Below are positions 1,319 to 19,738 of a stretch of 32,000 nt of DNA, one piece after another (position 1 is the first letter of the stretch; each line of letters starts with the position of its first letter). The position numbers were made by a program, and so were the translations under genes. Source of the DNA: Massilicoli timonensis (GTDB lineage Bacteria > Bacillota_I > Bacilli_A > Erysipelotrichales > Erysipelotrichaceae); the NCBI RefSeq assembly GCF_900199515.1, contig NZ_LT963434.1, forward strand, positions 513,272-545,271. The letters are read 5' to 3'. The notes below the pieces were generated by a model that saw only the letters and a list, made by a program, of their open reading frames with translations, was not told where the DNA came from and searched no databases.

Positions 1319-1323
1319 TTCCA

Positions 1324-3663: not shown

Positions 3664-3751
3664 CTTATAATAGTAATCTATATAACAAACCAACTAAGTA
3701 TAATAAACAATTATGTTCATGTTTATCAGGCATATAAGGCTATAATCTTCA

Positions 3752-3782: not shown

Positions 3783-3810
3783 AATTTTATTACTGACCTT
3801 ACACAAGATT

Positions 3811-4872: not shown

Positions 4873-4873
4873 T

Positions 4874-5587
4874 TTATTTTATCCAACTTTCTTTTTTCGT
4901 GTTAAGTAATGACTTAAATATTTCAATATCCTCTGTTGTTGTTATTTTCAAGTTTTTTTCTGATCCTCTTGAAAAATAAGAATTTCTACCAAGTGCTTCC
5001 ATGAGTGAACACGAAGCAGCCATGTTTTTAATGCCTAATTTTTGTGCTTCTTGATAGGCATTGAGAATATCTCCCAAATAATATGTATGTGGAGTTTGAG
5101 TACGCCACAGGGACTCTCTAGGTATAGATTTATTCGAAGATATCCCTTTTTCAGAAACAAACACAACTTCAGTACAAGGAATGGCAGCAACTGCTGATCC
5201 AAATTGTGATAATTTCACTAAACTATCAGTAATAATTTCTTGTGCAATCATCGGTCTATTTCCATCATGAATCATAACTACATCATTTGCTAAATGATTT
5301 TTTGTAATAGCTTGTAACCCATTGTATATTGACTCTTGCCCAGTGTCACCACCAATGACAATATATTTTAGTTTTGTGATATTAAATTGTTTGGCATAAG
5401 CTTGTAATATTTGTTCCCATCCTTTCAAAATAACAACACATATCTCATCAATATTTGGATGATTTTGAAAAGCTTCTAAAGTATAAATAATAATTGGTTT
5501 ATTGTTTACATGAATAAACTGTTTCGGGATGTCCTGTAAAGTTCGTGTCCCTTTTCCAGCAGCAGTTAATAAGGCAATGTTACTCAT
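4874..5587 (-). CDS. IspD/TarI-family nucleotidyltransferase (probable alditol-phosphate, e.g. ribitol-5-P, cytidylyltransferase)
   Basis: The N-terminus LLTAAGKGTRTLQDIPKQF is the IspD/TarI signature, and the protein is 237 aa. An AAGGAG SD is present. The start overlaps the end of the upstream gene by 8 nt. Confidence 0.8.
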   Translation of the reverse strand: MSNIALLTAAGKGTRTLQDIPKQFIHVNNKPIIIYTLEAFQNHPNIDEICVVILKGWEQILQAYAKQFNITKLKYIVIGGDTGQESIYNGLQAITKNHLANDVVMIHDGNRPMIAQEIITDSLVKLSQFGSAVAAIPCTEVVFVSEKGISSNKSIPRESLWRTQTPHTYYLGDILNAYQEAQKLGIKNMAASCSLMEALGRNSYFSRGSEKNLKITTTEDIEIFKSLLNTKKESWIK

Positions 5588-6623
5588 ATGAAGTCTCCTT
5601 TATTGTATATTTATTTATTTTTTGAACTATTTTATCTGTAACATATCTAAATACTATTGCTAATAAAATCGTAATAGTAAAAGATGCTATTATATATATA
5701 TATATATTATTAAATAGTTTATTTAATAGAATCATTGGTATCCTTTGCAATATATATATTTCAAACAGATGATCCCCCATCCACTTTAAGATTTTATTAT
5801 GTAATGATATTTTTCTACTTAATAATACAACTAGTATTGAAAAGGATATCATCAATAAAATATCTACTAAAGCGTTAATAAGATTTAATCTAAAGAAAAG
5901 CGTAGCAATAAAGCAAATGATTAATAGAATCGCATACGTTTTATTATTATTTAGTATTCGATTAATTTTAGCTTCATTGAACGCAAAAAACATACCTACG
6001 TTATAACAAAGGGCTGTATCGTACCAATATAATTCTTTATTAAAGACATAACGCATGATAATAATATATGCCACTGTTAGCACGATTTGGAAAATACACG
6101 CATAGAAATTACTACCTTTGAATATACAAAAGGCAATATAGGTACATAGGTAAAGGGCTAAAATGGTAAATACATACCAATTACTGTTTCCCATTGAGTC
6201 GAAACCTATAAGTGATAAACAAAACGTTTGGAATGAAAATGATTCATGAAGCATCAACTTTATTAAAGCATAAATAAAAACAGCTATATCAAACCTTACC
6301 AAAGTTAAAAAGACTCTTTTATATGGTATAGCATCGACATATTCTTTCCCCTTTTTTATTATAGAATATGCTATTCCATATCCTGAATAAAAAAGAAATA
6401 ATGTTACCATTGTCTGTCCAAAAGATGTTATTAACTTATCCCATAATAAATCAAATTGATCAGTGTATGTAACGTAGGAGTTAAAATGACTAAAAAAAAC
6501 AAGTAAAATAAATATCCCTTTGATAGATGATGTTTTTTCTTTGCTTAGATAATCTTCTTGTGCCCCTATTTTAATACCTAGCAGACATATAAGCAAATAA
6601 ATAAATGCTACCACGATCATCAT
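5580..6623 (-). CDS. Membrane acyltransferase family 3 (polysaccharide O-acetyltransferase type)
   Basis: The protein is about 10-TM and very hydrophobic, with the N-terminal motif IKGIFILLVFFSHF (conserved His in TM1). A GGAGGT SD is present. Confidence 0.7.
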   Translation of the reverse strand: MMIVVAFIYLLICLLGIKIGAQEDYLSKEKTSSIKGIFILLVFFSHFNSYVTYTDQFDLLWDKLITSFGQTMVTLFLFYSGYGIAYSIIKKGKEYVDAIPYKRVFLTLVRFDIAVFIYALIKLMLHESFSFQTFCLSLIGFDSMGNSNWYVFTILALYLCTYIAFCIFKGSNFYACIFQIVLTVAYIIIMRYVFNKELYWYDTALCYNVGMFFAFNEAKINRILNNNKTYAILLIICFIATLFFRLNLINALVDILLMISFSILVVLLSRKISLHNKILKWMGDHLFEIYILQRIPMILLNKLFNNIYIYIIASFTITILLAIVFRYVTDKIVQKINKYTIKETSYE

Positions 6624-6624
6624 G

Positions 6625-7761
6625 TTATACCTCCAACCATTTATTCTTACTTATTATAAAATCAACAACCCGTTCAGAATTTTTATTATCTGACATATAA
6701 TTAATCAATTTCTTAATTCTATTTCGTTCCTCTTTTAATATATCTTCGCCATTAGAAACATTTTCTATAAATTTCATCAGATCTTGAACTGTGTATATTT
6801 TTTGTGCACCTGCCCAATAATAATCAATATTGATAGAAAATCCCGGGTTATCACGATACTCTTCTATATCTTCCCACACGGCACCAATCGGTTTATCACA
6901 TAACGTATAATCATAATATACAGATGAATAATCAGTTAATAATGCATCACAATTACCAAGAAATTCGTAAGAATTTATGTTATGAACTGTAAAGAAAGAT
7001 TCATCAATAAAAACAATATTCTTTAGATTTAGCTTTTTAAACATTTTTATATCTTGAGAAAAATGTGGTTTAATTACGATTAAAATATCATTCTTGCGAG
7101 CAAAATCGTTAATTGTAATAGCATTTCGTTCATCATCTATGATTGGAATCACAGTTGATGATCCGGTTTTTAGACCATTTTTATGCTGCCTAAAAGTAGG
7201 ATACCAAACAATAATTTTATTGAACTTTATATTAAACAAACTATGCAAATCTCGTTTGATGAAGAACGAATCATTACGTGGATATCCTAGTGCTACAGCT
7301 TTTGAATTAGCCATATTGTGCTGATATGCTGTTACTTCTGAAAATTCATTAGAGGCAACGAGAAAATTGTCAATATCTGATGAAATCGTATAGACCCCTT
7401 TTATTTTTTTAATCGGTGATCCATGTGTTAAAAAAAAGGAAAATTGCTTCTTGTTTAATTTTTTAAAACATTCATTACAGGTAATAATGCACTTCACTTT
7501 TAATCTATAATAAATAAAATGAATTTTATGAATAAAAGTTTTTCTATCAATGTATACAACATTTTTAATAACGGGAAAGCTTTTTGATTTATCACTTACT
7601 AGCCAAATCATCTTACATTTTTTATTGATTCCTCTTTTAATCATTTCATCAAAAACATCTTTGCTATTATCTGAAAAATCTGGGATGCTTTCAAATAAAA
7701 TCGCATTTTTTAACGGAATAAAGGAAAAGAAAAATATGATTATTTCTTTTATTATTTTCAC
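6625..7761 (-). CDS. CDP-glycerol/CDP-ribitol:glycosyl alditol-phosphotransferase (TagB/TagF/TarL family)
   Basis: It carries the Glyphos_transf motifs VWYPTFRQH and LLTDYSSVYYDYTLCDKPI. The GTG start overlaps the wzx stop (GTGA) and has an AGGAGG SD. Confidence 0.8.
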   Translation of the reverse strand: MKIIKEIIIFFFSFIPLKNAILFESIPDFSDNSKDVFDEMIKRGINKKCKMIWLVSDKSKSFPVIKNVVYIDRKTFIHKIHFIYYRLKVKCIITCNECFKKLNKKQFSFFLTHGSPIKKIKGVYTISSDIDNFLVASNEFSEVTAYQHNMANSKAVALGYPRNDSFFIKRDLHSLFNIKFNKIIVWYPTFRQHKNGLKTGSSTVIPIIDDERNAITINDFARKNDILIVIKPHFSQDIKMFKKLNLKNIVFIDESFFTVHNINSYEFLGNCDALLTDYSSVYYDYTLCDKPIGAVWEDIEEYRDNPGFSINIDYYWAGAQKIYTVQDLMKFIENVSNGEDILKEERNRIKKLINYMSDNKNSERVVDFIISKNKWLEV

Positions 7762-9221
7762 TTGTTAGTTCCTCCTAAAATGTTTGCCTTAAAGAAATTT
7801 GCTAAAAATCTGAAGTTTTTATTCTTAGTAATAATGCTTAATGCAATATATGAAATAATTCCAACAAGCACCTGAATAGATATAGTCAAAAAAGGAGTTA
7901 TTTGAATAAATCTTAAACTGTATACAATTAATCCCATAACTCCAGAAATTATGAAATTAGGCAATAAATCCATAATTTGATATCGGTATCTATAACCAAT
8001 AAGCTTCCTGTTTGGATAGGTATTTGATAATGTAGCGAAGAAAGTACATAGAACACTTGAAAATGCCAATTGTGTAGGAGTCGTTGAAAATATAATAAAT
8101 AATACGATTATAACAAAGTAGATAGCTTTTTTAATAATTTCTAATAATAGTAAAATATCACTTCTTCCAATAGCACGGATAACTTGTAAGTTTCCTGTTT
8201 GTATGATGTTAAACATGTAACTTATACAAAAAATCTGAACAAATGGTATGGCTTCAGCCCATTTATCTGTAAGCAACAATAATATAAAATTATCAGAAAC
8301 TGCAAAAAATCCTGTCATCAATGGAAAAACTAAATAAGAAGAAAGCTGCATGAATTTTCTCGTTAATTCCAATATATAGTCTGGATCATCTTGATATTTA
8401 GATAATATTGGGAATACGACAGCAGAAACAGTATCACTTATAGATGCGTTAACAATTACCGGAAAGCTTTTCCCTTTTGTATAGAAAGCCAAATCAGATC
8501 GAGAGTATTTTATGCCTATTATCAAGGGATTGATTTGTTCATATAATTCACTAATTATTGAAGATATAAAGATCTTCCAACCATAGTTAAATAAAGATTT
8601 TAGTCTTTTTATTGAAAAAGACATCTTAGGAAAAAACTTGGTAGATAGTGTTAAAAATATTGTATCAAATAAACTTAATACTAATTGCTGGGTCACTAAA
8701 GCCCATACTCCATAACCTCTTAAAGCCATTGTAACTCCAATAATTGCAGAAATGATAGTACCGATAAGCGTAGATATAAAAAACTTCCTGAATTCTAGAT
8801 TACTAGAAATATACGCTGTTACGATGGATTTATATGCATTTATAAAAAGGGAAATTCCCATTATCCGAATAATAGGAATTAGAAGCTCATTGTCATAGAT
8901 ATTTGCTATTGTTGGGGCACTAATGAATAATGTTGTATATATGACTATAGAAATAAGCATTGTAACAAAAAAAACTGATGAATAATCAATAATATCAGCA
9001 TCTTTTTTTTGAATGAGAGCTGTATTTAAACCACCAGATATTAAAATATTAGAAAAAGAAAAGAAAATAGTTACTAGACTAACAACGCTAAAATCTTCCG
9101 GAAGTAAAATTCTTGCTAAAATAATAGAAACTGCAAGAGAAACTAATTGAGCTATTATCCTTTCACTAAATTTCCATAGAACTCCGCTGATTGCTTTTCT
9201 TTTCATAAAATTGTTATCCAT
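7758..9221 (-). CDS. wzx: Wzx-type oligosaccharide flippase (MOP/polysaccharide biosynthesis protein family)
   Basis: The protein is polytopic (12-14 TM) with the typical Wzx N-terminus KRKAISGVLWKFSERIIAQLVSLAVSIILARILLPEDF. The start is set at ATG 9221 (MDNNF), which has an AGAGGTG SD 5 nt upstream. Confidence 0.8.
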   Translation of the reverse strand: MDNNFMKRKAISGVLWKFSERIIAQLVSLAVSIILARILLPEDFSVVSLVTIFFSFSNILISGGLNTALIQKKDADIIDYSSVFFVTMLISIVIYTTLFISAPTIANIYDNELLIPIIRIMGISLFINAYKSIVTAYISSNLEFRKFFISTLIGTIISAIIGVTMALRGYGVWALVTQQLVLSLFDTIFLTLSTKFFPKMSFSIKRLKSLFNYGWKIFISSIISELYEQINPLIIGIKYSRSDLAFYTKGKSFPVIVNASISDTVSAVVFPILSKYQDDPDYILELTRKFMQLSSYLVFPLMTGFFAVSDNFILLLLTDKWAEAIPFVQIFCISYMFNIIQTGNLQVIRAIGRSDILLLLEIIKKAIYFVIIVLFIIFSTTPTQLAFSSVLCTFFATLSNTYPNRKLIGYRYRYQIMDLLPNFIISGVMGLIVYSLRFIQITPFLTISIQVLVGIISYIALSIITKNKNFRFLANFFKANILGGTNK

Positions 9222-9275
9222 AAAAACACCTCTCATGTTGCATATATTTTTTCATTTTTATCATAAGTTCTCTAA

Positions 9276-10307
9276 TTAAATGCTTTTAATCCATACTCTA
9301 ATTTTCACAAATATTTCTACTATTGAAATAGGAAAAAATAAATAGACTATTCGAAAAACCTTTAAAGGAAACGTAACTCCTTTTGAATCTTTTAACTTCA
9401 TGCGAAAAGTAGAATTGTTTTTTAAATATTTGATAATTTTATTATAATTTCTATAATCACTGATTTTTGATGCAAAACTATATTCATCTACTAGAGCACT
9501 ATATATATTGCATAATAATATATCATTTATTTTTTTAGATGAATCTCTTGGAAGTTGATATTTATTAACTAATTCTTCAAATTTATCATCTAACTCTAAG
9601 TATCTATCAAATTTATCGAGATAATACTTTGATGATACAGTATTCCTACAGTTAATGATTCTATGATATATGTATAGGCTATCACTGATAGCAGTTATTG
9701 TAGGATAAAAACTCATTACCTTAATAACATAATTGACATCTTCAATTAAATTAACTTCATCTAAATATAGATTATTTTTATGCAAAAACTCTCTTTTGAA
9801 CACTTTATTACATAAAGAATTAAATAAAGATTTATCAATAATTTCATTGAAAATTTCACCTAGATAGACATTATATTTATTCTTATCAAAAAACTGTTCA
9901 TTTTTATAAATTTCAATATTATCATCCAAGCCTATCATAGTCATACCAAAGCAAAGTATGTCTGTATTGTACAATAAATAAGAGTGAATAACTTCTAATG
10001 CATTTTCCTTAATCATATCATCTGAATCTATAAACCATATAAAGTCATTAGTACCAATATCAATACCTCGATTTCTCGCAAGTGCAGGTCCTTTGTTCTG
10101 TTGATGAATCAGTGCAATATTAGTATATCTGTCAGCATAATATTTGCAAATATTATATGAATCATCAGTACTCCCATCATCAATTAATATAATTGAATCG
10201 TTATAAACATTTTGAATGCATAATTCTTTTAGAAGATTACTTATATTATTCTCACAATTATAAATTGGAATGATAATGTCTAATCTCATTTTACTATTGG
10301 CACTCAT
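9276..10307 (-). CDS. Family 2 glycosyltransferase
   Basis: It has the GT-A signature DIIIPIYNCENNI...IILIDDGSTDDS...DSDD. An AAGGAGGG SD lies 7 nt upstream of the ATG. Confidence 0.8.
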   Translation of the reverse strand: MSANSKMRLDIIIPIYNCENNISNLLKELCIQNVYNDSIILIDDGSTDDSYNICKYYADRYTNIALIHQQNKGPALARNRGIDIGTNDFIWFIDSDDMIKENALEVIHSYLLYNTDILCFGMTMIGLDDNIEIYKNEQFFDKNKYNVYLGEIFNEIIDKSLFNSLCNKVFKREFLHKNNLYLDEVNLIEDVNYVIKVMSFYPTITAISDSLYIYHRIINCRNTVSSKYYLDKFDRYLELDDKFEELVNKYQLPRDSSKKINDILLCNIYSALVDEYSFASKISDYRNYNKIIKYLKNNSTFRMKLKDSKGVTFPLKVFRIVYLFFPISIVEIFVKIRVWIKSI

Positions 10308-10428
10308 AATGTCACCCTCCTTTCAAAACAAAGAGAAAGTAGTTTTTGTTAAAATAATTTATAATAATGCATGAAAATTTCGCTTACAGTCAATTCGTTT
10401 TAATATCAATTTCTACCTATTTTAGTTT

Positions 10429-11544
10429 TTAATAAAAGCGCCAGTAATGATAAGCATTTACAAGTCTATACGCAAACATACCTAGACAAATAATCACTAA
10501 AACTATCGTGATTAAATTCTTTTTCATTTTAGATAAATGACCAATTTCCTTAAATAAGACTAAACTCATTATATATAAAATCGTTTGGTATCTTGATACG
10601 ATCAATGGGAAAGGCAATAGTCCTAAACATAATAAAATTAAAGACTTTGTCAGATTCATATAGTAAGATCCGTATTTTTTTTCAATTTCATCTCTAAACT
10701 TATAAAATAAGTACACAATTATAATAAACAATATCCAAGAACATATCATAGACCTAATATCTATAAATTGGAGATAAAAACTAGGATCTGCGTATATCTT
10801 TAATCTTTCTAATGCATCAGATAAAAACAATATACCTGTTGGAAAAAAATTACCTATAAGTAATCCAATATAAGATAAACATATCATTCCAAATGACAAC
10901 GTCTTGCACAGTTTATTCTTATCTGAAAAGATAGTCAGAATTTCTGCCATTGCGACTACTAATAATAAAGTCAAAGCTGCTGTATGTATCAGAACTGGAA
11001 TAATATAAAGAAGTTTATAACCTATTTTTTTAGGTGCATCAAATAAAAATATCAATAGAAACGATGCAATTGCTAAAGGAAAGCGGACACCACTTATTGT
11101 TTGATTAAGATAGATAAAACTTGCAAACATAATAAAATATAATGAAATATAGCGACTTTCTTTTACATCTTTGCATACTTTATTAGTGTATATAAAAATA
11201 CTGATATAAAAAATTGATGTTGAAATAAATGTTAACAAATTACTGTTATTCGTTAGAGAAACAAGATAAAAAAGAGTTGTTGTAATAATATTTATTTTAT
11301 ATGGAAATTGCGCGATATAATTAAGACCTTCTGTTTTAAAAGAATCAATCATCATAAAATATCTACTCAAATCATCTCCTTCATAAGGATCGGTGCATAA
11401 TGCAATGATTCCGACAGCAATAATAATGATAATTAAACTGTATATGCTTCGCTTTTTTACTGTTAAATTCAGAAATATATTAATATAATTAGCGATTAAG
11501 AAAAACAGACATAAAAAAACTGATAAATATCCTAGAATTTTCAC
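10429..11544 (-). CDS. wzy: Repeat-unit polymerase Wzy (EpsG-like membrane protein)
   Basis: This is a 371-aa protein with about 10-11 TM helices and no soluble domain. It sits among glycosyltransferases next to wzx, which suits an EpsG/O-antigen polymerase-like role. The start is GTG with an AAGGGGGA SD. Confidence 0.6.
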   Translation of the reverse strand: MKILGYLSVFLCLFFLIANYINIFLNLTVKKRSIYSLIIIIIAVGIIALCTDPYEGDDLSRYFMMIDSFKTEGLNYIAQFPYKINIITTTLFYLVSLTNNSNLLTFISTSIFYISIFIYTNKVCKDVKESRYISLYFIMFASFIYLNQTISGVRFPLAIASFLLIFLFDAPKKIGYKLLYIIPVLIHTAALTLLLVVAMAEILTIFSDKNKLCKTLSFGMICLSYIGLLIGNFFPTGILFLSDALERLKIYADPSFYLQFIDIRSMICSWILFIIIVYLFYKFRDEIEKKYGSYYMNLTKSLILLCLGLLPFPLIVSRYQTILYIMSLVLFKEIGHLSKMKKNLITIVLVIICLGMFAYRLVNAYHYWRFY

Positions 11545-11545
11545 A

Positions 11546-12643
11546 CTATTCCCCCTTCCTGCTGATTATTTGATCATAAAATCGAATTAAGTTCTCTGCT
11601 GTTTCATAAATATCAAATTGATCAAGAGTTTTGTTATATGGCCGTTTATCTTTTTTATAATTAATAATCAAATTGACCCAATCTTCTATATTAGTTTTAT
11701 TAATTCCACACTGTATAATATTATTATTTATAATTGATTCCTTTGATATTTTATTTGAAATTATTGAGAATAACGAAGAACATTGTGCTTCTATCAAAGA
11801 GACTGGAAAACCTTCAAAATATGATGGAAGTAAAAAAATATCAAAGAAACTATAGTACTTATATGAATCTTCGACCCTTCCAACTAAAACTATATTTTCT
11901 GACAACCCCAATTTTTCAATATATTTTTTAATTGTTTTTTTACTGTCACCATCACCCACAATAAATAATTTATAATTTCTGGTGTTATCTTTTTCTAAAA
12001 CTTCTTTCAAAATTTCCAAAGAAAAGTTTAAGTTTTTTTCAGGTGATAATCGGCACACCATTCCTATGACTATATCTTCATCACCAATACTATATTTTGT
12101 TCTAAGGTCATATCTATACACATTATTATATTTGAATTTATTTACATCAATACCATTGGGTATCCACTTGCCCTTCACGCCTTTTCCAAACGACCATTTT
12201 TTTGCAGCTATACCGCAATAGGCAAAATTTGTTGCCATTAATTTATTAAGATAATGAATAAATGCCCTTTTGAAATTAGTATTTTCATAATCCCCCATAC
12301 ATGTATGTGCATGGGCTATTCGTACCTTAATCCTACACATTTTAGCAATCATTAGCGGTAAGAAGCACATGTCACTTTGATGAGCGTGAACAGCATCAAA
12401 ATAGTTATTATTGTATATTTTTCTCAAATCTTCGAGATACTTAAAGATATTTTCTTTTTTTGGAGTAATGTGATATATATTACAGCCCAATTGAGATAGT
12501 TTTCTTTCAATAACTCCTATTTCATTCCCATGAACAATAAAATCCCATTTTATTCCTCTTCCATTAATTAATGAATAATAATTATATAGCATTGATTCTA
12601 TTCCACCAATATCTAATTTTGGAACAATATGAAGAATCCTCAT
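11546..12643 (-). CDS. Family 4 (GT-B) glycosyltransferase
   Basis: The C-terminal EX7E region is PSYFEGFPVSLIEAQCSS, and the N-terminus ILHIVPKLDIGGIE is typical of GT4. Confidence 0.8.
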   Translation of the reverse strand: MRILHIVPKLDIGGIESMLYNYYSLINGRGIKWDFIVHGNEIGVIERKLSQLGCNIYHITPKKENIFKYLEDLRKIYNNNYFDAVHAHQSDMCFLPLMIAKMCRIKVRIAHAHTCMGDYENTNFKRAFIHYLNKLMATNFAYCGIAAKKWSFGKGVKGKWIPNGIDVNKFKYNNVYRYDLRTKYSIGDEDIVIGMVCRLSPEKNLNFSLEILKEVLEKDNTRNYKLFIVGDGDSKKTIKKYIEKLGLSENIVLVGRVEDSYKYYSFFDIFLLPSYFEGFPVSLIEAQCSSLFSIISNKISKESIINNNIIQCGINKTNIEDWVNLIINYKKDKRPYNKTLDQFDIYETAENLIRFYDQIISRKGE

Positions 12644-12699
12644 ACTATCAACTTACCTCCCATTGCATAGCAAAACACTATAAACTGTTATAAATATAT

Positions 12700-13497
12700 T
12701 TACTTCCTTCTATTCTTTGACACAAAGATCCTTTTAAGATATTTTATATCCTCATAACAATCCAATATCTTCCTTTGAAAAAAAGAAATATATCCTTTTT
12801 CACTTGCTATTTCATGCATCATTTTTATTCCTTTATGCATTTTTTTCAAATTTCCTGATAGACCACTATGTCCATATGTCGGCTTCCCATCGCCACAAAA
12901 AACCAATGGTTCAATTGTATAATATAATCCAAAACAAGAAGCTACTTCTAAAAAAAAGATCCCTTCTTCAGCATGAGTCATTGATTCATTAAAATATAAA
13001 TCATTTTTGAAAAGACTTTTTCTAAAAATAATAGATGGGGTACATGGCCAATTCTTAATGCAATAACGGAATGGTGAAATTCTATATATAGAGTCAGTAA
13101 TCTTAGTGCCATATTTTATTATTTCACCTATTCTATTTGATCCTAAAACTTTGATATCAGTATATTTTTCTAAAATTTCATTTTGTATTTCCAATTTATT
13201 AGGCAACCAAACATCATCTGCATCTAACAATGCAATATATTCATTTCTAGTATTTTTTATACCTACATTTCTGGCCGATGAAGCACCACCATTTGTTTTA
13301 TTTAGTATTTTTATTTTTGAATTCTTTTCCAATATAAGTGAATTAACTATTTCTAGCGATTTATCAGTGGAACCATCATTAACAACAATTATTTCATCAA
13401 TTAAATCATATTTTGTTTGATTAATTACAGATTGTATTGTTTTTTCTATCGTACCTTCATTATTGTACATCGGAATAACTACACTGTATTTAATCAT
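12700..13497 (-). CDS. Family 2 glycosyltransferase
   Basis: It has the GT-A motifs YSVVIPMYNNEGTIEKTIQSVINQT, IIVVNDGSTDKS and LDADD. The start is set at ATG 13497, which overlaps the upstream stop (ATGA). Confidence 0.8.
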   Translation of the reverse strand: MIKYSVVIPMYNNEGTIEKTIQSVINQTKYDLIDEIIVVNDGSTDKSLEIVNSLILEKNSKIKILNKTNGGASSARNVGIKNTRNEYIALLDADDVWLPNKLEIQNEILEKYTDIKVLGSNRIGEIIKYGTKITDSIYRISPFRYCIKNWPCTPSIIFRKSLFKNDLYFNESMTHAEEGIFFLEVASCFGLYYTIEPLVFCGDGKPTYGHSGLSGNLKKMHKGIKMMHEIASEKGYISFFQRKILDCYEDIKYLKRIFVSKNRRK

Positions 13498-14090
13498 ATT
13501 TCCTCCCATTTCTCTTTATTCTCATTGAATCGTTTAATTATAGTAGCTGGAGAGCCAACTACCATACTATTCTCTTCTATACTTTTTGTTACAACACTGC
13601 TAGCACCTATCACAGAACCATTTCCTATTTTTACACCTTTCAAAATCACAACATTCTCTCCAATCCAAACATTATTTCCTATCTCAATAGGCGAAGAATA
13701 TATCTTTCTACAATCAGGAGGAGTATTAGGTAATACTTGTTCTCTATCATTATAACTTCCATGATCTAGATCGGAAATAAATACATGTGAAGCAATTAGT
13801 ACATTATCACCAATCTTTACAGAACTGGCGCTGGCAATATGCACATAATCGCCTATTTTCACGTTCTTACCAAAACTAATAACACCAAATGTATCACCAA
13901 CTTTAATGCTTTCTAAACGGCAACAATATCCACTTGTAAAACCATGATTAAAGTTTATATATTTCCCATTTCGTATGTAGCATGGATAACGGATCAATCT
14001 TGCTTGACGATGGAATATTTTTGTTGCTATCAAACTTACTGTATTTTTAATGATTTCATAAATACCATACTGCATTTTATCAATCCTCAT
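13494..14090 (-). CDS. Left-handed beta-helix (hexapeptide repeat) acetyltransferase
   Basis: It contains repeated [LIV]G-x4 hexapeptides (IGDNVLIASHVFI, IGNNVWIGENVVILKGVKIGNGSVIGASSVV). It resembles Maa/LacA-type sugar O-acetyltransferases. Confidence 0.75.
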   Translation of the reverse strand: MRIDKMQYGIYEIIKNTVSLIATKIFHRQARLIRYPCYIRNGKYINFNHGFTSGYCCRLESIKVGDTFGVISFGKNVKIGDYVHIASASSVKIGDNVLIASHVFISDLDHGSYNDREQVLPNTPPDCRKIYSSPIEIGNNVWIGENVVILKGVKIGNGSVIGASSVVTKSIEENSMVVGSPATIIKRFNENKEKWEEI

Positions 14091-15018
14091 TTTCTAAATG
14101 ATATCCCTTTAATAAATATAGCGCCTTAAATAAGAAGCTCTGTATTCTTGTTTGGCGATAAAGCTTTGTTGTACATACAAATTTTATCCTACTAAATAGA
14201 CCATCACAACTTCTAATAAAACATTCTAATTCTGTTAAATATTCTCTGTCTAAAGATGCCTTATATATGTTATAAAACTCATTAATCTGCATTGCATATT
14301 TTTTATTATCATTGTTTCTGATTCGCTTTACTCTCTCTTTGAACCAGCCAATTTTCCCTTCTCCAAAACCAACTTCATTGTTTTGGTGTTGTCGATAATA
14401 AACAAAAGAATCATTATTAAAAATGATCTTCCCTTTTACCATGGCCACATTCGTGATCCATGAATCATATACATAGATTTTCGCATAATTGATCGGTTTC
14501 TTTAATTCGTCCAATAGCACCTGATTCATCACTTGTTCATGTCCGGGTAAAAAATTCTGAATGATCGTGTTATAGAATGTAATTTCACGCTTCTTTTTTT
14601 GTGTTGTTCCGAATGGAATCAGATCATCATGCACCAAATAAGAAGTTGACGCATATAATAATGGAATTTTGCTATCTTCTTGCTCTAAGTATTTTACTGC
14701 TATATCTAATTTATTGTCTAACCATACATCATCCTGATCACTTAGTGAGTAGTAATCATAGCCGTTTGCCTCTTGTATCAACCAAAAGAAGCTTTTGTTA
14801 TAACCTATGTTTTCCCCCTCTACTACTTTGATTCTATCAGGATACTTCGTTTCATATTCCTGTAAGATATTCAGTGTATCATCATTTGACCCATCATCAC
14901 GAATCAACAAGTCCACCTGATGTTCTGTTTTTTGATACAGGATACTTTCAATTTGTGCACTAATATATTTCTCACCGTTATAGGCGGATAATAAAACAAG
15001 AATTCTTTTACTTTTCAT
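14080..15018 (-). CDS. Family 2 glycosyltransferase
   Basis: The sequence ILVLLSAYNGEKYISAQIESILYQ...DLLIRDDGSNDDT...SDQDD carries the GT-A DxD and nucleotide-binding signatures. Confidence 0.8.
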   Translation of the reverse strand: MKSKRILVLLSAYNGEKYISAQIESILYQKTEHQVDLLIRDDGSNDDTLNILQEYETKYPDRIKVVEGENIGYNKSFFWLIQEANGYDYYSLSDQDDVWLDNKLDIAVKYLEQEDSKIPLLYASTSYLVHDDLIPFGTTQKKKREITFYNTIIQNFLPGHEQVMNQVLLDELKKPINYAKIYVYDSWITNVAMVKGKIIFNNDSFVYYRQHQNNEVGFGEGKIGWFKERVKRIRNNDNKKYAMQINEFYNIYKASLDREYLTELECFIRSCDGLFSRIKFVCTTKLYRQTRIQSFLFKALYLLKGYHLENED

Positions 15019-15057
15019 ATATCAAATCTCCAAAATACTTTGTGATCAAGATCCGTT

Positions 15058-15672
15058 TCATTCCATCTCCCCCTTGTGCATCTCTCCTGTTCCTCCCTCT
15101 ACCACTCCATCTGATCGCAATACCGATGTGATCGTTTTGATCAAGCACTTCACGTCAAATAAAAAAGAGCTGCATTCCACATACTCTCCATCTAACTTCG
15201 CCTTTACTTCGATCTCCAATTCATCTCGTCCGTTGATCTGCGCCCATCCGCTTAATCCCGGCTTGATCTCATTGGCATGATAACGATCCCTTTCTTCTAT
15301 CAGATCATATTGATTCCATAGTGCCGGTCTCGGTCCGATGATCGCCATATCCCCCTTTAAGATATTCAAGATCTGCGGTAGTTCATCTAAGCTCGTCTTT
15401 CTTAAAAACCTTCCTGCCTTTGTGATATACTGATCCGGATTTGCCAATAGATGGGTAGGCATATCCTTTGGTGTATCCACATACATCGTACGAAACTTCA
15501 AGATATAGAAATAAGTTTTATCTTTTCCGACTCTTTTTTGCTTGAACAGGATCGGTCCCTTACTATCCAACTTGATCCAGACGCATAGGATCAGAAAGAG
15601 CGGACTCAATAATACCAATGCGATCAAAGACAACAAAAAGTCGATCCCTCTTTTTATATAATTTCGATACAT
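15058..15672 (-). CDS. Initiating undecaprenyl-phosphate sugar-phosphotransferase (small monotopic PglC/WbaP-C-terminal type 'bacterial sugar transferase')
   Basis: IKRGIDFLLSLIALVLLSPLFLILCVWIKLDSKGPILFKQKRVGKDKTYFYILKFRTM and DELPQILNILKGDMAIIGPRP are diagnostic of this family. Confidence 0.9.
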   Translation of the reverse strand: MYRNYIKRGIDFLLSLIALVLLSPLFLILCVWIKLDSKGPILFKQKRVGKDKTYFYILKFRTMYVDTPKDMPTHLLANPDQYITKAGRFLRKTSLDELPQILNILKGDMAIIGPRPALWNQYDLIEERDRYHANEIKPGLSGWAQINGRDELEIEVKAKLDGEYVECSSFLFDVKCLIKTITSVLRSDGVVEGGTGEMHKGEME

Positions 15673-15684
15673 TCCTTTTCCTCC

Positions 15685-16257
15685 CTAAATAATCGTACCC
15701 GCAGGAATATGCTGATTAGAAGGTATCCTTGTGCCTGCTTGTATTACACAATGACTCTCAATTCTGCATTTTTCTTGAATTAACGCTGCTGGACGAACTA
15801 TTACATTTGCATAAAGCAATCCATACGCTTCCACCTTTGCATCATGATGGATAACCGTATGAGCAGAAATAATATTACCTTCTCCAATCCATGCATTTGC
15901 TTCAATCTGTGCAAATGGAAATACAATCGTTCCTTTCCCAACCGCTGCATAAGGAGATACATCGGCTTTCGGACTAATCAATGTCACGATGCGATAACCG
16001 ATCATTTCTGCTTGCATACACCATTTTTTTCTCATTTCATTGTTTCCTATCGCAATGAAAATATCTTCATATTCAAGATAATACGAACACATCTCATCAA
16101 TTTTCCCGATTACTTTGCTGCCATTGATACAATCATGAACCATCTGATCATCTAAAAATGCTATTTCATCATAACAACTTAAACTCTTCGCAATATCTAA
16201 ACAGCATCTGCCATGTCCTCCGGCGCCTACAATTAACAGTTTTTTAATAAAAATCAC
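15685..16257 (-). CDS. NeuD/PglD-family sugar N/O-acetyltransferase
   Basis: An N-terminal Rossmann-like KKLLIVGAGGHGR is followed by C-terminal hexapeptide repeats (IGEGNIISAHTVIHHDAKV). The start codon is ambiguous: GTG 16257 lies inside the SD, while ATT 16248 has ideal spacing. Confidence 0.75.
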   Translation of the reverse strand: MIFIKKLLIVGAGGHGRCCLDIAKSLSCYDEIAFLDDQMVHDCINGSKVIGKIDEMCSYYLEYEDIFIAIGNNEMRKKWCMQAEMIGYRIVTLISPKADVSPYAAVGKGTIVFPFAQIEANAWIGEGNIISAHTVIHHDAKVEAYGLLYANVIVRPAALIQEKCRIESHCVIQAGTRIPSNQHIPAGTII

Positions 16258-16261
16258 CTCT

Positions 16262-16315
16262 AAAACAAAAAAAGAATATAGTTCCCCCTACCCATACGAT
16301 AACGAAACTATATCC
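16262..16315 (-). terminator. Candidate intrinsic terminator between the NusG-like genes and the biosynthetic genes
   Basis: The minus-strand RNA forms GGAUAUAGUU-22 nt loop-AACUAUAUUC, a 10-bp stem with one G.U pair. It is followed directly by UUUUUUUGUUUU. The stem is AT-rich and the loop is large, so the structure is weak. Confidence 0.35.
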
Positions 16316-16357
16316 AAATATTCAACACAGGCGGTAAACCAGCTCTCTGTCTCCTAT

Positions 16358-16849
16358 TCATCCTGTAATCACCAGACCGGCCTGTATCTCACGATTCATG
16401 AACGCAATATCCAAATAAGCCAATCGGTTATGTTTGTCGACCTTTTTTATATTTTTTTCAAATCGCTTCAGCGGCCCCTCATAGACCTTGGCCCTGTTTT
16501 CCTTCAATACCGCTTTTGACATTCTTAATACATGGCTGTCATCTAACAACTGCTCTAATAGCCGCACTTCTTCCTCACGCAAGGCACTTACTTCTTCATA
16601 CTTCAACTGTGCGATTATATCATCTCTCACTTCAATCATATGGCTCAGCAACAAATCAAATGAACGCTGGTCAATCGACGCTTTCACAAACACATAATTT
16701 GCAAATAAAGGCTTATAAGCATATCCATCTATATCTCTGCGATAATATTCCAACTGCGGTACAAAAGCATCGATTCCGTCATGTTGATTCAACTGCTTTA
16801 CCAGTTTGTCCATCTTCCATTTGAGACAGTATAAAATATACCAGTTCAT
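16358..16849 (-). CDS. NusG-family paralog (LoaP/UpxY/RfaH-like operon-specific transcription antiterminator), copy 2
   Basis: The NGN-like N-terminus is NWYILYC...DAFVPQLEYYRR...KPLFANYVFVKA. The KOW-like C-terminus is VYEGPLKRFEKNIKKVDKHNRLAYLDIAFMNREIQAGL. The ATG overlaps the stop of copy 1 (ATGA). Confidence 0.7.
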   Translation of the reverse strand: MNWYILYCLKWKMDKLVKQLNQHDGIDAFVPQLEYYRRDIDGYAYKPLFANYVFVKASIDQRSFDLLLSHMIEVRDDIIAQLKYEEVSALREEEVRLLEQLLDDSHVLRMSKAVLKENRAKVYEGPLKRFEKNIKKVDKHNRLAYLDIAFMNREIQAGLVITG

Positions 16850-17349
16850 ACCTTATTGACCACTTCCAGCGGTGCTTTCATCCTTGTCCCCAGCAACTGA
16901 CAGTCCAAATATGCAATGCGCTTATGGCGATCGATTTTTTTGATCTGCTGCTCCATCCCTTTTAGCGGGCCGCTTTCCACATTTAATTTTGAATTGATGA
17001 TATTACCGACGGAATGCCTGATCACACCATTTCCATCAAACATTCTTTCAAAAAATCGCTGTTCCTCCTCATCCATAGAAATCAATGCCTCTCCTTCCAG
17101 TAATTTTGCAAAGCGACTGATTTGGTGAAACAGATCCTGATAAGTCTGATGAAAATGCTCTTTACTCATATCCGCTTTTATAAACAAGTAATCCGGAAAC
17201 AGTAATATATTGCGATACTCCTTGGTATTCGCACCCGAAAACCATTTTTCCATCATTGGCAGAAATGCGTGAATCCCTTGTTGTTCATTAAAAAAGCGCA
17301 AAAGATCGTGACAATTTCCACTTTTTATATGAATAATGCACCAATACAA
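16846..17349 (-). CDS. NusG-family paralog (LoaP/UpxY/RfaH-like operon-specific transcription antiterminator), copy 1
   Basis: The NGN-like N-terminus is YWCIIHIKSG...HAFLPMMEKW...LLFPDYLFIKA. The KOW-like C-terminus is VESGPLKGMEQQIKKIDRHKRIAYLDCQLLGTRMKAPLEV. It has a TTG start at 17349 with an AAGGGGTG SD (17357-17364) 7 nt upstream. It is the first gene of the operon. Confidence 0.7.
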   Translation of the reverse strand: MYWCIIHIKSGNCHDLLRFFNEQQGIHAFLPMMEKWFSGANTKEYRNILLFPDYLFIKADMSKEHFHQTYQDLFHQISRFAKLLEGEALISMDEEEQRFFERMFDGNGVIRHSVGNIINSKLNVESGPLKGMEQQIKKIDRHKRIAYLDCQLLGTRMKAPLEVVNKV

Positions 17350-17367
17350 AAAAATTCACCCCTTGCG

Positions 17368-17394
17368 TTTCGTAGAACATGTTATTCTACGAAA
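17368..17394. repeat. Left recombinase core site (IRL): TTTCGTAGAA-CATGTTA-TTCTACGAAA
   Basis: It has 10-bp perfectly palindromic arms around a 7-bp asymmetric spacer. The whole 27-mer is the exact reverse complement of 18479-18505. The recombinase stop codon (TAG, 17389-17387) lies in the inner arm. Confidence 0.9.
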
Positions 17395-18325
17395 GAAAGG
17401 GGTGTTTGATCTTATTGATCTGTTCTTTCTTAAAGGCCAGTGAAGAATGTACATATCTTCCAAGGGTAATGGATACACTGGAATGGCCCAACATTTCACT
17501 CAAAGATTTCACATCAATACCGACTTCAATACATCTAGTAGCATAGGTATGGCGAAGCGCATGAAAATTGATCTGAAACTCTTTCTGTCTGCACAGCCTT
17601 TGAAATTGATACTGTATCGTCCTTGGATCGATCGGCAGATTTGAATCAGACAAGATATAATGCTTTTTCGTCAACTCATTATGATGATTACCATAATTTC
17701 TGATCAAATGCATCTTGATAAATTCAGGAACCGGGACCAGTCTTTTGGAAGATGGGGTTTTGGGTGTGCTTACCATCAAAACGGTCTTTCGGTTCGACTG
17801 TTCCTCATTTTCAATTCGCTGTGCTGTTTTTGAAATATAGATCACGCCCTGCTCCAAATCGATATCCTGCCACTGCAAGGCACATATTTCTCCAATCCGA
17901 AGTCCTGCGTATAAGCCAAATAGGATTGCCAGTGACAAAGCATCTTGTTTATAAAAGCAGTATTGTCTTAACTGGCTTTCCTGTTGATCCGAAAGAATTT
18001 GGAAATGCGTATGCTGACGAGGCATTTTTACATATTGAAAATCAATATGTGCAATGTCATACTTATTTTCAGCGAATGACAGAACAGAACGCAGTACATA
18101 GCGGATCGTCTGAATCGTACTGAGCGCATATTTATGTGATTGATAGATATCCATAAAAAAATGAACAATGGCATCTTCACTCATCTTCTGAGATAAAAAG
18201 AACGGCTGTAACTGCAATCGTATAATGCGCTTATACTTCACATAAGTAGACTGCTTGATCGTCATACGTTTTCGGCATAGCCATTCATCTGCAATGACCG
18301 TCATGCTGATTTTACTGTTTTTCAT
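17387..18325 (-). CDS. Tyrosine site-specific recombinase (phage integrase/XerC-D family)
   Basis: The catalytic signature is visible: GLRIGEICAL (Arg I), HALRHTYATR (His-x-x-Arg) and LGHSSVSITLGRYVH (His/Tyr). An N-terminal SAM-like core-binding domain is present. AGGAGG SD is present. Confidence 0.9.
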   Translation of the reverse strand: MKNSKISMTVIADEWLCRKRMTIKQSTYVKYKRIIRLQLQPFFLSQKMSEDAIVHFFMDIYQSHKYALSTIQTIRYVLRSVLSFAENKYDIAHIDFQYVKMPRQHTHFQILSDQQESQLRQYCFYKQDALSLAILFGLYAGLRIGEICALQWQDIDLEQGVIYISKTAQRIENEEQSNRKTVLMVSTPKTPSSKRLVPVPEFIKMHLIRNYGNHHNELTKKHYILSDSNLPIDPRTIQYQFQRLCRQKEFQINFHALRHTYATRCIEVGIDVKSLSEMLGHSSVSITLGRYVHSSLAFKKEQINKIKHPFLS

Positions 18326-18465
18326 AGTAGACCTCCTAATAATTTCTTACAATGTACACCGTTTGTAAAGAAAAGCATAGGAAATTCACTTTCGATTCAC
18401 TCGCATGCAAATCCTGAAAAATGGCTGAAAAATGTGTTTTATTTATAGTATTTTTATACTATTTT

Positions 18466-18474
18466 GTGCTATAA
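18466..18474 (+). promoter_or_regulatory. Extended -10 promoter element TGcTATAAT facing out of the invertible segment through IRR
   Basis: This is a perfect TATAAT (18469-18474) with an upstream TG (18466-18467), preceded by an A/T-rich tract. The -35 (AGTATT) is poor. The predicted TSS is about 18481, inside the IRR arm. Confidence 0.5.
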
Positions 18475-18478
18475 TAAC

Positions 18479-18505
18479 TTTCGTAGAATAACATGTTCTA
18501 CGAAA
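18479..18505. repeat. Right recombinase core site (IRR): TTTCGTAGAA-TAACATG-TTCTACGAAA
   Basis: The arms are the same as in IRL and the 7-bp spacer is the reverse complement of the IRL spacer. The two sites are therefore in inverted orientation. Confidence 0.9.
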
Positions 18506-18516
18506 GAAAGAATATA

Positions 18517-18575
18517 AAAATGCTGAGAAACGTATGAACTTTCATTCATTCGCTTCCAGCATTTTATTTTATATT
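18517..18575. terminator. Long bidirectional terminator-like hairpin immediately outside IRR
   Basis: AAAATGCTG (18517-18525) pairs with CAGCATTTT (18557-18565). The inner segments GAAACG/CGCTTC and ATGAA/TTCAT also pair. The plus strand is followed by AUUUUAUUUUAUAUU and the minus strand by UUUUUAUAUUCUUUCUUUC. Confidence 0.55.
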
Positions 18576-18740
18576 GGTTTGTTAGAGAAACACCTTATGA
18601 TCAGTCCCGGCATATTTATAAAAGATTGCGAAAACGACTTCAAATCAAGACTTTCCAAGCACGAAAATCACTTAGACGATCCATAGGATTCAAATCCCTA
18701 ATAACGTAGTTCTATTGCGTAACACCATATCACTGTACAC

Positions 18741-18769
18741 AGAAAAAAACAGGACGTGTGCAGTCCTTC
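18741..18769 (-). terminator. Candidate terminator of the hydrolase gene
   Basis: The minus-strand RNA forms AGGAC-UGCACAC-GUCCU followed by GUUUUUUUC, about 30 nt after the stop codon. The stem is short (5 bp). Confidence 0.4.
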
Positions 18770-18799
18770 ATGACTGTCTGCGCCCTGATTGTTTGTGTA

Positions 18800-19429
18800 T
18801 TACAGATCGCCGTTCCAAAAATCATAAATTAAGTTAGAAAGCTCCTTAGGGTTATCAACATTAACCTCGTGTGAAGAATTAGAAACAGTGTTGAATGAAC
18901 TTCCTTTTATTGTCTTATGCAATCTCTTTGCACTCTCCATATTCTGATTATCCTTCACACCACACAAAATCAAGCTCCTGCAATGTATTTTCTCCAAATT
19001 TTCCGCTATATCTAAATGAGCCATTGACTTGACCAGTGTGATAAATTTCTTTTTAGGACACCCTATTTTTTCAAACGCAGCTTTCGGCATAAAATGAAAT
19101 ACAACACTTTGCAGATGGAAAAGAAATTTTGGTATTTTATATGGAGTGCCGATCAAAATAATCGTATTTACCTTGTCGGGAAATTTTTTTGCATAATCAA
19201 TTGCTAATATACCGCCCAATGATAATCCACACAAGTTTAATTTTCCCTCAAAAGCATTGCAATAATCAGAAAACTTATTAAACAAAGTAATATAGTCCGG
19301 TTCTGCATGATCAAGCATAGAATACAGGTTAGGCGCAGTTGTTTCAATGCCTTTCCTCTTCAATTCATAATCAACGGCCTTCCAACTACTTTTATTCTGC
19401 CCTAATCCATGTATTAAAATATGTTTCAT
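18800..19429 (-). CDS. Alpha/beta-fold hydrolase
   Basis: It has an HGLGQNKSSW oxyanion-region motif, a nucleophile elbow GLSLGG (GxSxG) and a C-terminal SSHEV His region. The protein is 209 aa. Confidence 0.8.
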   Translation of the reverse strand: MKHILIHGLGQNKSSWKAVDYELKRKGIETTAPNLYSMLDHAEPDYITLFNKFSDYCNAFEGKLNLCGLSLGGILAIDYAKKFPDKVNTIILIGTPYKIPKFLFHLQSVVFHFMPKAAFEKIGCPKKKFITLVKSMAHLDIAENLEKIHCRSLILCGVKDNQNMESAKRLHKTIKGSSFNTVSNSSHEVNVDNPKELSNLIYDFWNGDL

Positions 19430-19738
19430 GCTTCCACCAACTTTCTATATGCAAATCATTTTAACAATACTGTTTTCCTATATTGCGGGTTTGACGGTCA
19501 TGACGGAAAAGTCCATTCATTTTATGATGGACGGAAGCGGCTGGCTTTGCCATTACTGACGAGTTTCTCCTATCATGCAGCTTCTTTCATATTTTTTCAA
19601 CATCTCATACTTGATGAGGCAAAAATAGTTTTTCTCTCCATGGCAAAGATGCGTCACTAGAACAAGCAATTTTCTATCTGTATCAAAGCCAATGTCATAC
19701 ACGCCGACACGCGCTTTCTATATATTACGCCTGATTTT

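Follow-up and report, generated by a model that had tools for sequence, protein, structure and literature searches.

A self-contained invertible segment with lox-like sites that most likely switches a capsule-type polysaccharide operon in Massilicoli timonensis

A 1.1-kb DNA segment in the gut bacterium Massilicoli timonensis (Erysipelotrichaceae) carries its own tyrosine-recombinase gene and an outward-facing promoter between two lox-like sites. The segment is found in both orientations in nature, most likely turns a capsule-type polysaccharide operon on and off, and belongs to a widespread family of such switches in Firmicutes for which we found no description. In the window, the whole 32-kb stretch of DNA that was analysed, the segment lies 18 nt upstream of a 15-gene Wzx/Wzy-type polysaccharide operon led by two LoaP-like NusG paralogues (Table 1). 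Our analysis supports the preliminary description of the locus as an inversion switch whose promoter faces away from the operon in this assembly, predicting an OFF state, although some of its coordinates were off by one. The extended -10 had been placed at 18466-18474, 5 nt from the site, but lies one position further on and 3 nt (AAC) from the 27-mer, and after inversion the TATAAT would map to 17398-17403 rather than to 17399-17404.

The two sites are 27-mers with perfect 10-bp palindromic arms around 7-nt spacers that are reverse complements of each other, and the inverted repeat extends by one further nucleotide to 28 nt with 100% complementarity. The pattern TTTCGTAGAA-N7-TTCTACGAAA occurs exactly twice in the window even with 3 mismatches allowed, with 0 expected in 100 shuffles. 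The only long ORF inside the segment encodes a recombinase that matches Phage_integrase (PF00589; 94.4 bits against a cut-off of 27.1, E-value 8.6e-27) and Phage_int_SAM_3 (PF14659), lacks an N-terminal arm-binding extension and has only a generic source annotation. The catalytic residues R143, H255, R258, H281 and Y291 are invariant in an alignment of 17 family members. The best PDB match is an XerC-like recombinase (1.9e-14), but the protein does not reach equivalog level for Xer proteins, with a best score of 97.8 bits against a cut-off of 220 for XerA and 80 against 335 for XerC. For both NusG paralogues (first gene, Pfam NusG 2.4e-8), LoaP (NF033641) is the best-scoring family, with 99.3 and 95.6 bits, although both scores are below the cut-off of 125; scores for UpxY (NF033644) were 40.3 and 40.9 bits against a cut-off of 100. 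No Rfam family was found in 16300-19500.

Table 1 Coordinates of the switch and its surroundings in the window
Position	Strand	Feature	Details
17368-18505	.	Invertible segment	1138 bp
17368..17394	.	IRL recombination site	TTTCGTAGAA-CATGTTA-TTCTACGAAA; inverted repeat extends to 17395
18479..18505	.	IRR recombination site	TTTCGTAGAA-TAACATG-TTCTACGAAA; inverted repeat starts at 18478
17387..18325	-	Tyrosine recombinase gene	312 aa, WP_102267257.1; TAG stop inside the inner arm of IRL
18326..18478	.	Non-coding region of the segment	153 bp; holds the outward promoter and presumably the recombinase's own promoter
18467..18475	+	P_out, outward promoter	Extended -10 TGcTATAAT, reading outward through IRR; TSS predicted inside the inner arm
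17397..17404	-	Inner half of the split terminator	RNA CACCCCUU, from the last codons of the recombinase; inside the invertible segment
17348..17364	-	Outer half of the split terminator	AAGGGGUG (17357-17364) followed by U7 (17348-17354)
17357-17364		Shine-Dalgarno (SD) of the first operon gene	AAGGGGTG
18517..18575	+	'Parking' terminator outside IRR	Hairpin followed by UUUUAUUUUAUAUU
3811-17349	-	Polysaccharide operon	15 co-directional genes
16846..17349	-	First operon gene, LoaP-like NusG paralogue	167 aa; TTG start at 17349
16358..16849	-	Second operon gene, LoaP-like NusG paralogue	163 aa
3811..16257	-	Thirteen polysaccharide-biosynthesis genes	PglD-like acetyltransferase, initiating sugar transferase, GT2 and GT1 glycosyltransferases, EpsG-type polymerase, Wzx-type flippase, glycerophosphotransferase, acyltransferase, cytidylyltransferase and epimerase; gene content varies between strains
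18534-18686	+	Small ORF following IRR	50 aa
18751..18767	-	Terminator of the upstream alpha/beta-hydrolase gene (18800-19429)	Insulates the switch and operon from upstream transcription

Comparison of public assemblies directly supports inversion rather than excision. Of 19 assemblies of the same species, 16 have the window orientation (L001-4, L006, L008-10 and L072, with seven further loci assigned by gene order) and 3 (L005, L007 and L071) have the segment flipped, with junctions exactly at the 27-mers and 0 mismatches in the 40-nt flanks. Flipped and unflipped loci are interspersed by sequence similarity: the flipped L005 differs from the window inverton by 1 nt and the unflipped L001 by 14, which indicates repeated inversion events, although these differences were seen between assemblies and not within one clonal culture. 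Orthologous switches upstream of the same NusG pair occur in other genera of Erysipelotrichales, also in both orientations, with L014 flipped and L059, L065 and L047 not.

The same arms, combined with locus-specific spacers, occur in 60 loci of diverse Bacillota, of which 43 have a partner site whose spacer is the exact reverse complement. These loci form small promoter invertons, each carrying one strong promoter next to a site, and about 20 self-contained invertons with a homologous recombinase inside. An outward promoter next to the site far from the recombinase's 3′ end is conserved across the family, with a score of at least 11 in 14 of 18 self-contained members, compared with 0 of 18 on the opposite strand and 1.9% of shuffles, and TGnTATAAT is found at the identical position in L014, L059, L065 and L047. 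In M. timonensis the -35 of P_out is poor (TAGTAT), and the promoter relies on the TG-extended -10. No convincing recombinase-sense promoter was found in any family member. A generic promoter and terminator scan was at chance level overall and missed both the extended -10 and the imperfect-stem terminators, so we relied on conservation and folding instead. Full-text literature searches found no paper containing either half-site in a bacterial context, and none describing a tyrosine recombinase inside a promoter inverton upstream of NusG-led capsule genes in Firmicutes.

Folding further revealed an orientation-specific element that had not been noticed in the preliminary description. In the window orientation, the last codons of the recombinase, IRL and the operon's SD form a composite terminator (window 17335-17425, minus strand; dG -31.5, z -6.1) that covers the SD and is followed by U7, whereas in the flipped state only a weak 5′ hairpin forms (-10.3, z -1.2). 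An analogous SD-covering pairing is seen in L047, and an A4/U4 extension with a U-rich tail in L059 and L065. The second terminator, just outside IRR (dG -18, z -4.3), has an equivalent hairpin plus U-tract outside the promoter-side site in L059, L065 and L047; it would stop P_out transcripts in the window orientation and recombinase transcripts in the flipped one.

Taken together, these data favour, with good confidence, a self-contained phase-variation switch in which the internally encoded recombinase binds the palindromic arms and exchanges strands across the spacers; because the spacers are in inverted orientation, the segment inverts. The inversion itself is observed, whereas the mechanism is inferred from site geometry, and the role of this recombinase rather than another from co-location and family-wide co-occurrence. 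In the window orientation, inferred from sequence to be OFF, the promoter points into a nearby terminator, and transcripts of the recombinase gene, which points towards the operon, end at the composite terminator with the ribosome-binding site sequestered; as the recombinase is co-directional with the operon, leaky read-through cannot be excluded. In the flipped orientation, inferred to be ON, the promoter abuts IRL, the inner half of the terminator has moved away, and a leader of about 43 nt with a free SD runs into the two LoaP-like NusG paralogues, which presumably make transcription of the operon processive.

It remains possible, although unlikely, that the window orientation is instead the ON state, with the operon co-transcribed with the recombinase gene from the recombinase's promoter or from one outside IRR, and the outward -10 incidental or serving something else. 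The recombinase and operon are co-directional and only 37 nt apart, the window orientation is the majority, and in most family members the large outward-reading gene also lies on the recombinase-3′ side in the reference assembly. However, the composite hairpin lies exactly between the recombinase stop and the operon start, and the outward promoter is conserved and near-consensus across the family while the recombinase-sense strand has none. Small invertons of the family are also mostly in the promoter-away state, as expected for costly surface structures. A weak promoter-like site outside IRR that reads inward (18538-18511, 9/12) is at chance level, with 8 such sites found against 7.9 expected.

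Slightly less likely still is a two-way toggle, in which P_out in the window orientation would drive the small ORF beyond IRR or interfere in antisense with the hydrolase gene, so that inversion exchanges two expression programmes. At least one family member (L020) sits between two divergent sugar-nucleotide genes, and another (L060) has genes on both sides. In the window, however, the terminator-like hairpin with its U-tract lies 12-70 nt outside IRR and overlaps that ORF, and no outward-reading ORF of at least 60 aa starts within 500 nt on that side in the window or its orthologues.

A primarily mobile, IS-like cassette with a tyrosine transposase and terminal inverted repeats is very unlikely. 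Homologous recombinase-plus-repeat cassettes do sit next to very different genes in different genomes (TnpB-like genes, BspA-type LRR surface protein, EssC-like ATPase, GT2 and HD-domain genes), implying past mobility or recruitment. However, only two sites are present within the window, the cassette lies between the hydrolase and the NusG pair in all 19 loci of the species, and it occupies the orthologous position in other genera whose recombinases are only 52-56% identical. There are no target-site duplications, the inverted partner spacers give inversion rather than excision, and the split terminator with the SD shows that the flanks have co-evolved with the element. The site has no match in 2.9 million viral contigs, and a phage att site was therefore also rejected. 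Finally, assembly artefacts or rare fixed rearrangements by homologous recombination are least likely, even though orientations were compared only between consensus assemblies and without read-level data, because the flipped contigs come from three independent samples and different assemblers (Logan k=31 unitigs and two ENA scaffolds) with a repeat shorter than k-1, occur in three strain backgrounds and in an orthologue from another genus, and have exact junctions at a repeat that is a poor RecA substrate but has exactly the geometry of a tyrosine-recombinase core site.

More tentatively, the locus may be one member of an undescribed, portable 'plug-in' phase-variation cassette of Bacillota, with arms conserved across classes (Erysipelotrichia, Clostridia) and a 7-nt spacer private to each locus, so that many switches in one genome could use the same enzyme chemistry without cross-recombining. 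On this reading, the cassette has been recruited repeatedly in front of capsule operons, surface proteins, a type VII-like secretion ATPase and TnpB-like genes, and in the Erysipelotrichaceae lineage has co-evolved with its target into an orientation-dependent split terminator that hides the ribosome-binding site. A size limit of 750 bp, which may be common in inverton finders, would explain why the 1.1-1.5-kb self-contained form has been missed. Phase-variable capsules are central to how gut Bacteroides evade phages and immunity, whereas comparable switches in gut Firmicutes are barely described. The locus provides a compact, sequence-defined and experimentally tractable example, as well as a search pattern that already retrieves about 60 related switches in cultured and uncultured Bacillota. 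The conserved-arm, private-spacer design suggests a natural set of orthogonal recombination sites for one enzyme family, which would be useful for synthetic memory circuits in Gram-positive hosts. The finding also warns that inverton surveys with short size limits, and assemblies that break or fix one orientation here, under-report such switches.

Promoter invertons are known, and the novelty lies in the combination and the family, not in the principle. Inverton group 139 and invertase group 35 of the hCom2 survey (PMC11892184), with 33 read-verified invertons, 32 of them in Clostridia, inverted repeats of about 14-26 bp, sizes near 250 bp and a link to a nearby tyrosine recombinase, may be the small-inverton branch of the same family; no self-contained members of 1.1-1.5 kb or NusG-led operons are described there. 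Bacteroides capsular-polysaccharide invertons with UpxY/UpxZ (PMC11685472), like this locus, appear to place an invertible promoter, mostly OFF in assemblies, immediately upstream of a polysaccharide operon whose first genes encode a specialized NusG paralogue in a gut commensal. In those systems, the invertons are about 200 bp and the recombinase seems to lie outside the repeats or act in trans, as for the serine invertase Mpi of B. fragilis and the locus-adjacent tyrosine recombinases of B. thetaiotaomicron. Here, in Bacillota, the recombinase is inside, the sites are lox-like with a conserved arm and a variable spacer, the NusG paralogues score as LoaP-like and not UpxY, and a second NusG paralogue stands in place of UpxZ.

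The Salmonella Hin H-segment (PMC9368917), which inverts the fljBA promoter, is similarly about 1 kb and appears to carry the recombinase gene and an outward promoter that reads across one site into the regulated operon. However, Hin is a serine invertase, dependent on an enhancer and Fis and acting at hix sites with a 2-bp core, whereas the enzyme here is a tyrosine recombinase with 10-7-10 sites and no Resolvase domain. Cre/loxP and FLP/FRT share inverted arms around an asymmetric spacer that sets directionality, and the FLP gene itself seems to lie in the segment that inverts in the yeast 2-micron circle, but their geometry is 13-8-13, no promoter-switch function is involved, and the proteins are only distantly related, the best PDB matches being Xer-type and Tn1549-type Int proteins. 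In the Escherichia coli fim switch, tyrosine recombinases also invert a promoter, and orientation appears to affect the fate of the fimE transcript; there the recombinase genes lie outside a 314-bp element with 9-bp repeats, IHF and Lrp appear to be needed, and FimB/FimE-type NCBIfam models match our recombinase only weakly (27.7 and 23.8 bits against cut-offs of 221 and 222). Type I restriction-modification hsdS shufflons with an internal tyrosine invertase, such as the Streptococcus pneumoniae PsrA/CreX cod locus (PMC4948785, PMC7672463), appear, as here, to carry the invertase gene between the inverted repeats, but reshuffle coding sequences through repeats inside genes rather than a promoter. 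The RecV switches of Clostridioides difficile also use a tyrosine recombinase in a Firmicute, although RecV is probably encoded elsewhere and serves many small switches in trans, the inverted-repeat sequences are unrelated and the cwpV promoter is fixed outside the switch. In cwpV, the OFF orientation appears to create an intrinsic terminator from sequences brought together by inversion, the same logic as the split terminator found here.

The window holds a perfect inverted repeat of 28 nt with 1082 nt between its arms. Written as a 27-mer, each copy reads TTTCGTAGAA-N7-TTCTACGAAA, a pattern that occurs exactly twice in the 32 kb even with three mismatches allowed, against 0 in 100 shuffles, and the two spacers, CATGTTA and TAACATG, are reverse complements. 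Between the sites (hereafter IRL and IRR) lie one long open reading frame of 312 aa and 153 nt of non-coding DNA. The encoded protein, WP_102267257.1 of Massilicoli timonensis (Erysipelotrichaceae), is annotated only as ‘tyrosine-type recombinase/integrase’; it matches Pfam Phage_integrase at 8.6e-27, has an N-terminal SAM-like domain, and its TAG stop codon lies in the inner arm of IRL. An extended −10 element, TGcTATAAT, sits 3 nt from the 27-mer; the preliminary description had placed it one base off, at 18466-18474, and had given the distance as 5 nt, two bases off. Eighteen nucleotides outside IRL, a TTG preceded by the Shine-Dalgarno sequence (SD) AAGGGGTG opens the first of 15 co-directional genes, which comprise two NusG paralogues, a PglD-like acetyltransferase, an initiating sugar transferase, GT2 and GT1 glycosyltransferases, an EpsG-type polymerase, a Wzx-type flippase, a glycerophosphotransferase, an acyltransferase, a cytidylyltransferase and an epimerase. 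Coordinates of these and other features are collected in the table.

Coordinates of features in the window and in related loci.
Sequence	Feature	Coordinates	Strand
Window	Inverted repeat, arm at IRL	17368-17395	
Window	Inverted repeat, arm at IRR	18478-18505	
Window	Recombinase open reading frame	17387-18325	minus
Window	Non-coding DNA between the sites	18326-18478	
Window	Extended −10 element TGcTATAAT	18467-18475	
Window	TTG start of the first operon gene	17349	
Window	Two tandem NusG paralogues	16358-17349	
Window	Polysaccharide genes downstream of the NusG pair	3811-16257	
Window	Hairpin half inside the segment, CACCCCUU	17397-17404	
Window	Hairpin half outside the segment (SD), AAGGGGUG	17357-17364	
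Window	Hairpin outside IRR followed by UUUUAUUUUAUAUU	18517-18575	plus
Window	Terminator of the upstream hydrolase gene	18751-18767	
Window	GAAAG following the 27-mers (direct repeat D1)	17395-17399 and 18506-18510	plus
L026	TnpB-like gene (example)	4542-5894	minus
L020	Self-contained inverton of 1813 bp	3696-5508	
L022	Self-contained inverton of 3958 bp	927-4884	
L022	Additional 587-aa open reading frame	1135-2898	minus
L017	1391-bp site pair enclosing a recombinase remnant	1287-2677	
L029	Two perfect sites with unrelated spacers	2267-2716	

The segment is found in both orientations in nature. A search for the exact protein returned ten public contigs that encode the identical recombinase, and we compared the 40 nt on each side of each 27-mer with the window. 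Eight contigs have the window arrangement, whereas two, L005 (Logan SRR21482882) and L007 (ENA ERZ28614877), have the arrangement operon flank, site, reverse complement of the promoter end, reverse complement of the recombinase 3′ end, site, hydrolase flank, with zero mismatches. A scan of JGI/ENA metagenome contigs with the exact 27-mer gave one more flipped locus (L071) and one unflipped locus (L072), and seven further loci that encode a one-cluster variant of the recombinase all show the window gene order, giving a total of 16 loci in the window orientation and 3 flipped. The flipped loci are not one clone: their invertons are 99.9%, 98.8% and 97.8% identical to that of the window, and they are interspersed with unflipped ones. 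Behind the conserved switch and NusG pair, the polysaccharide gene content is that of a serotype-like variable locus, differing between M. timonensis strains when loci L001, L002 and L003 are compared with the window; L001 lacks the PglD-like gene, and L003 has an epimerase and a GT4 after the initiating transferase. Many public gene calls for the first NusG paralogue are 136 aa instead of 167 aa, probably because the TTG start is missed or because contigs break at the inverton; several contigs (for example, that of locus L010) end within a few hundred bases of the switch.

Scanning one genome per GTDB species with the arms, leaving the N7 spacer free, revealed 60 loci from Lachnospiraceae, Erysipelotrichaceae/Coprobacillaceae, other Clostridia and a few Bacilli MAGs. 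Some genomes have several loci, with five contigs in Otoolea muris and six in Clostridiaceae 1XD21-72. In 43 loci a second site lies nearby, with at most three arm mismatches and a spacer that is the exact reverse complement of the first, and the spacers differ from locus to locus. Because at least one perfect site was required, the real family is probably wider. At one locus, L029, two perfect sites 423 bp apart have unrelated spacers (TGAGCCG and TGGCGTA); this is the one locus where neighbouring sites are not partners. Two loci of Clostridiaceae 1XD21-72, L012 and L050, share one flank and the inverton but differ in the other flank, suggesting duplication or recombination between different invertons.

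The family falls into two size classes. Invertons of about 205-450 bp lack a recombinase, and each has one strong promoter (TTGAAA-17-TATAAT or TTGACA-17-TATAAT) 9-58 nt from one site; several lie next to NusG-like genes. About 20 self-contained invertons, mostly 1138-1813 bp and one of 3958 bp, contain a homologue of the window recombinase (31-56% identity). The 3958-bp member, L022 of Schaedlerella arabinosiphila, carries an extra open reading frame inside the invertible segment in addition to the recombinase, and cargo genes can therefore ride in the cassette. A site pair in Merdibacter sp. (L017) encloses only a 118-aa remnant matching the recombinase and is probably a decayed self-contained switch, whereas L030 and L033, on one contig, together appear to form one more self-contained inverton split between two loci. 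Four loci are true orthologues of the window switch, with a recombinase 52-56% identical followed by the same pair of NusG paralogues: L014 (Beduini massiliensis), which is in the flipped state, and L059, L065 and L047, which are in the window state. In 12 of the 60 loci (L022, L023, L026, L035, L043, L048, L053, L058, L060, L061, L066 and L069), a TnpB-like gene lies immediately outside an inverton of either class. The gene encodes 435-460 aa, has a Cas12f1-like TNB domain and matches NCBIfam guided_TnpB at 1e-11, and the copies are 49-77% identical to each other, which suggests phase-variable expression of a TnpB-like protein in Lachnospiraceae; no paper on this was found.

In all four orthologues TGnTATAAT sits 3 nt from the site at the end far from the recombinase 3′ end and reads outward, exactly as in the window. 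We scored the 90 nt next to that site in 18 self-contained invertons. The outward strand scores at least 11 in 14 cases, many of them perfect TTGACA-17-TATAAT, whereas the recombinase-sense strand reaches that score in none and shuffled sequence does so in 1.9% of trials. An outward promoter at that end is thus a defining feature of the family. The recombinase’s own promoter could not be recognized.

In the window orientation the recombinase points at the operon, so read-through had to be considered. Folding the recombinase-sense RNA across IRL gives a long hairpin in which CACCCCUU, from the last codons of the recombinase inside the segment, pairs with AAGGGGUG, the Shine-Dalgarno of the operon outside it, around the palindrome; the free energy is −31.5 kcal/mol with z = −6.1, and U7 follows immediately. 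By this predicted fold it is an intrinsic terminator that also hides the ribosome-binding site, and it exists only in this orientation, because its two halves lie on either side of the crossover. The flipped-state leader, taken from L005, has only a weak 5′ hairpin (−10.3, z = −1.2). In the flipped state, GAAAG, which follows both 27-mers, extends the hairpin at the recombinase 3′ end to 17 bp, with no U-run, but its significance is unclear. Among the orthologues, L047 has the same logic (CCCCUCAUU/AAUGAGAGGAG; z = −6.7), and L059 and L065 extend the palindrome by A4/U4 and follow it with a U-rich tail. On the other side, 12-70 nt outside IRR, a hairpin followed by UUUUAUUUUAUAUU (z = −4.3) would stop transcripts from the outward promoter in the window state; equivalent terminators lie outside the promoter-side site in L059, L065 and L047, and the upstream hydrolase gene has its own terminator. 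Although inferred from sequence and without expression measurements, these features together support an OFF state in this assembly and an ON state after inversion, with a leader of about 43 nt.

The residues R143, H255, R258, H281 and Y291 are invariant across 17 family members. The window enzyme lacks the roughly 60-aa N-terminal extension present in the Lachnospiraceae members, which fits a simple Cre/Xer-like two-domain enzyme acting on a simple core site. The closest solved structures are Xer-type recombinases and the Tn1549 Int, and no NCBIfam equivalog cut-off is reached. The 10-7-10 site, with palindromic arms and an asymmetric spacer, has the lox/FRT geometry, and inverted spacers predict inversion. 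The NusG paralogues score best as LoaP (99 and 96 bits, below the cut-off of 125) and poorly as UpxY. They are only about 27-30% identical to each other, and each has its own orthologue in Beduini and Coprobacillaceae; the second is of unknown role (a UpxZ-like antagonist or a second antiterminator).

Of the alternative explanations, expression of the operon by read-through in the window state is disfavoured by the split terminator and by the conserved outward promoter. A two-way toggle is possible for some relatives, namely L060 and L020; the latter inverton sits between two divergent genes whose 5′ ends are paralogous in sequence, an NDP-sugar epimerase/dehydratase on one side and a nucleotidyltransferase-kinase on the other, and may switch between two alternatives. 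In the window, the terminator outside IRR argues against a toggle. An IS-like element is disfavoured because the position is fixed in 19 loci and orthologous in other genera, there is no target duplication, and the site has no viral hits, although the diversity of neighbouring genes across the family implies past recruitment or mobility. Finally, a mis-assembly is very unlikely, as the 28-nt repeat is shorter than the assemblers’ k-mers and the contigs come from different pipelines.

The reality of the element is well supported, and its mechanism is inferred but coherent. In the literature searched we found no description of the site, the self-contained form, its family-wide design or the split terminator. 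Recombinases ‘near or inside’ invertible regions are acknowledged in general (PMC9881135), and a 2025 survey reports an unpublished Clostridia inverton group linked to a tyrosine invertase, which may be the small-inverton branch (PMC11892184). As inferred here, the element is functionally a promoter inverton in front of a capsule operon led by NusG paralogues, as in Bacteroides. Its layout, with the recombinase and the outward promoter inside the segment, is that of Salmonella Hin, its chemistry and site geometry are those of Cre/loxP, and its orientation-built terminator is reminiscent of Clostridioides difficile cwpV.
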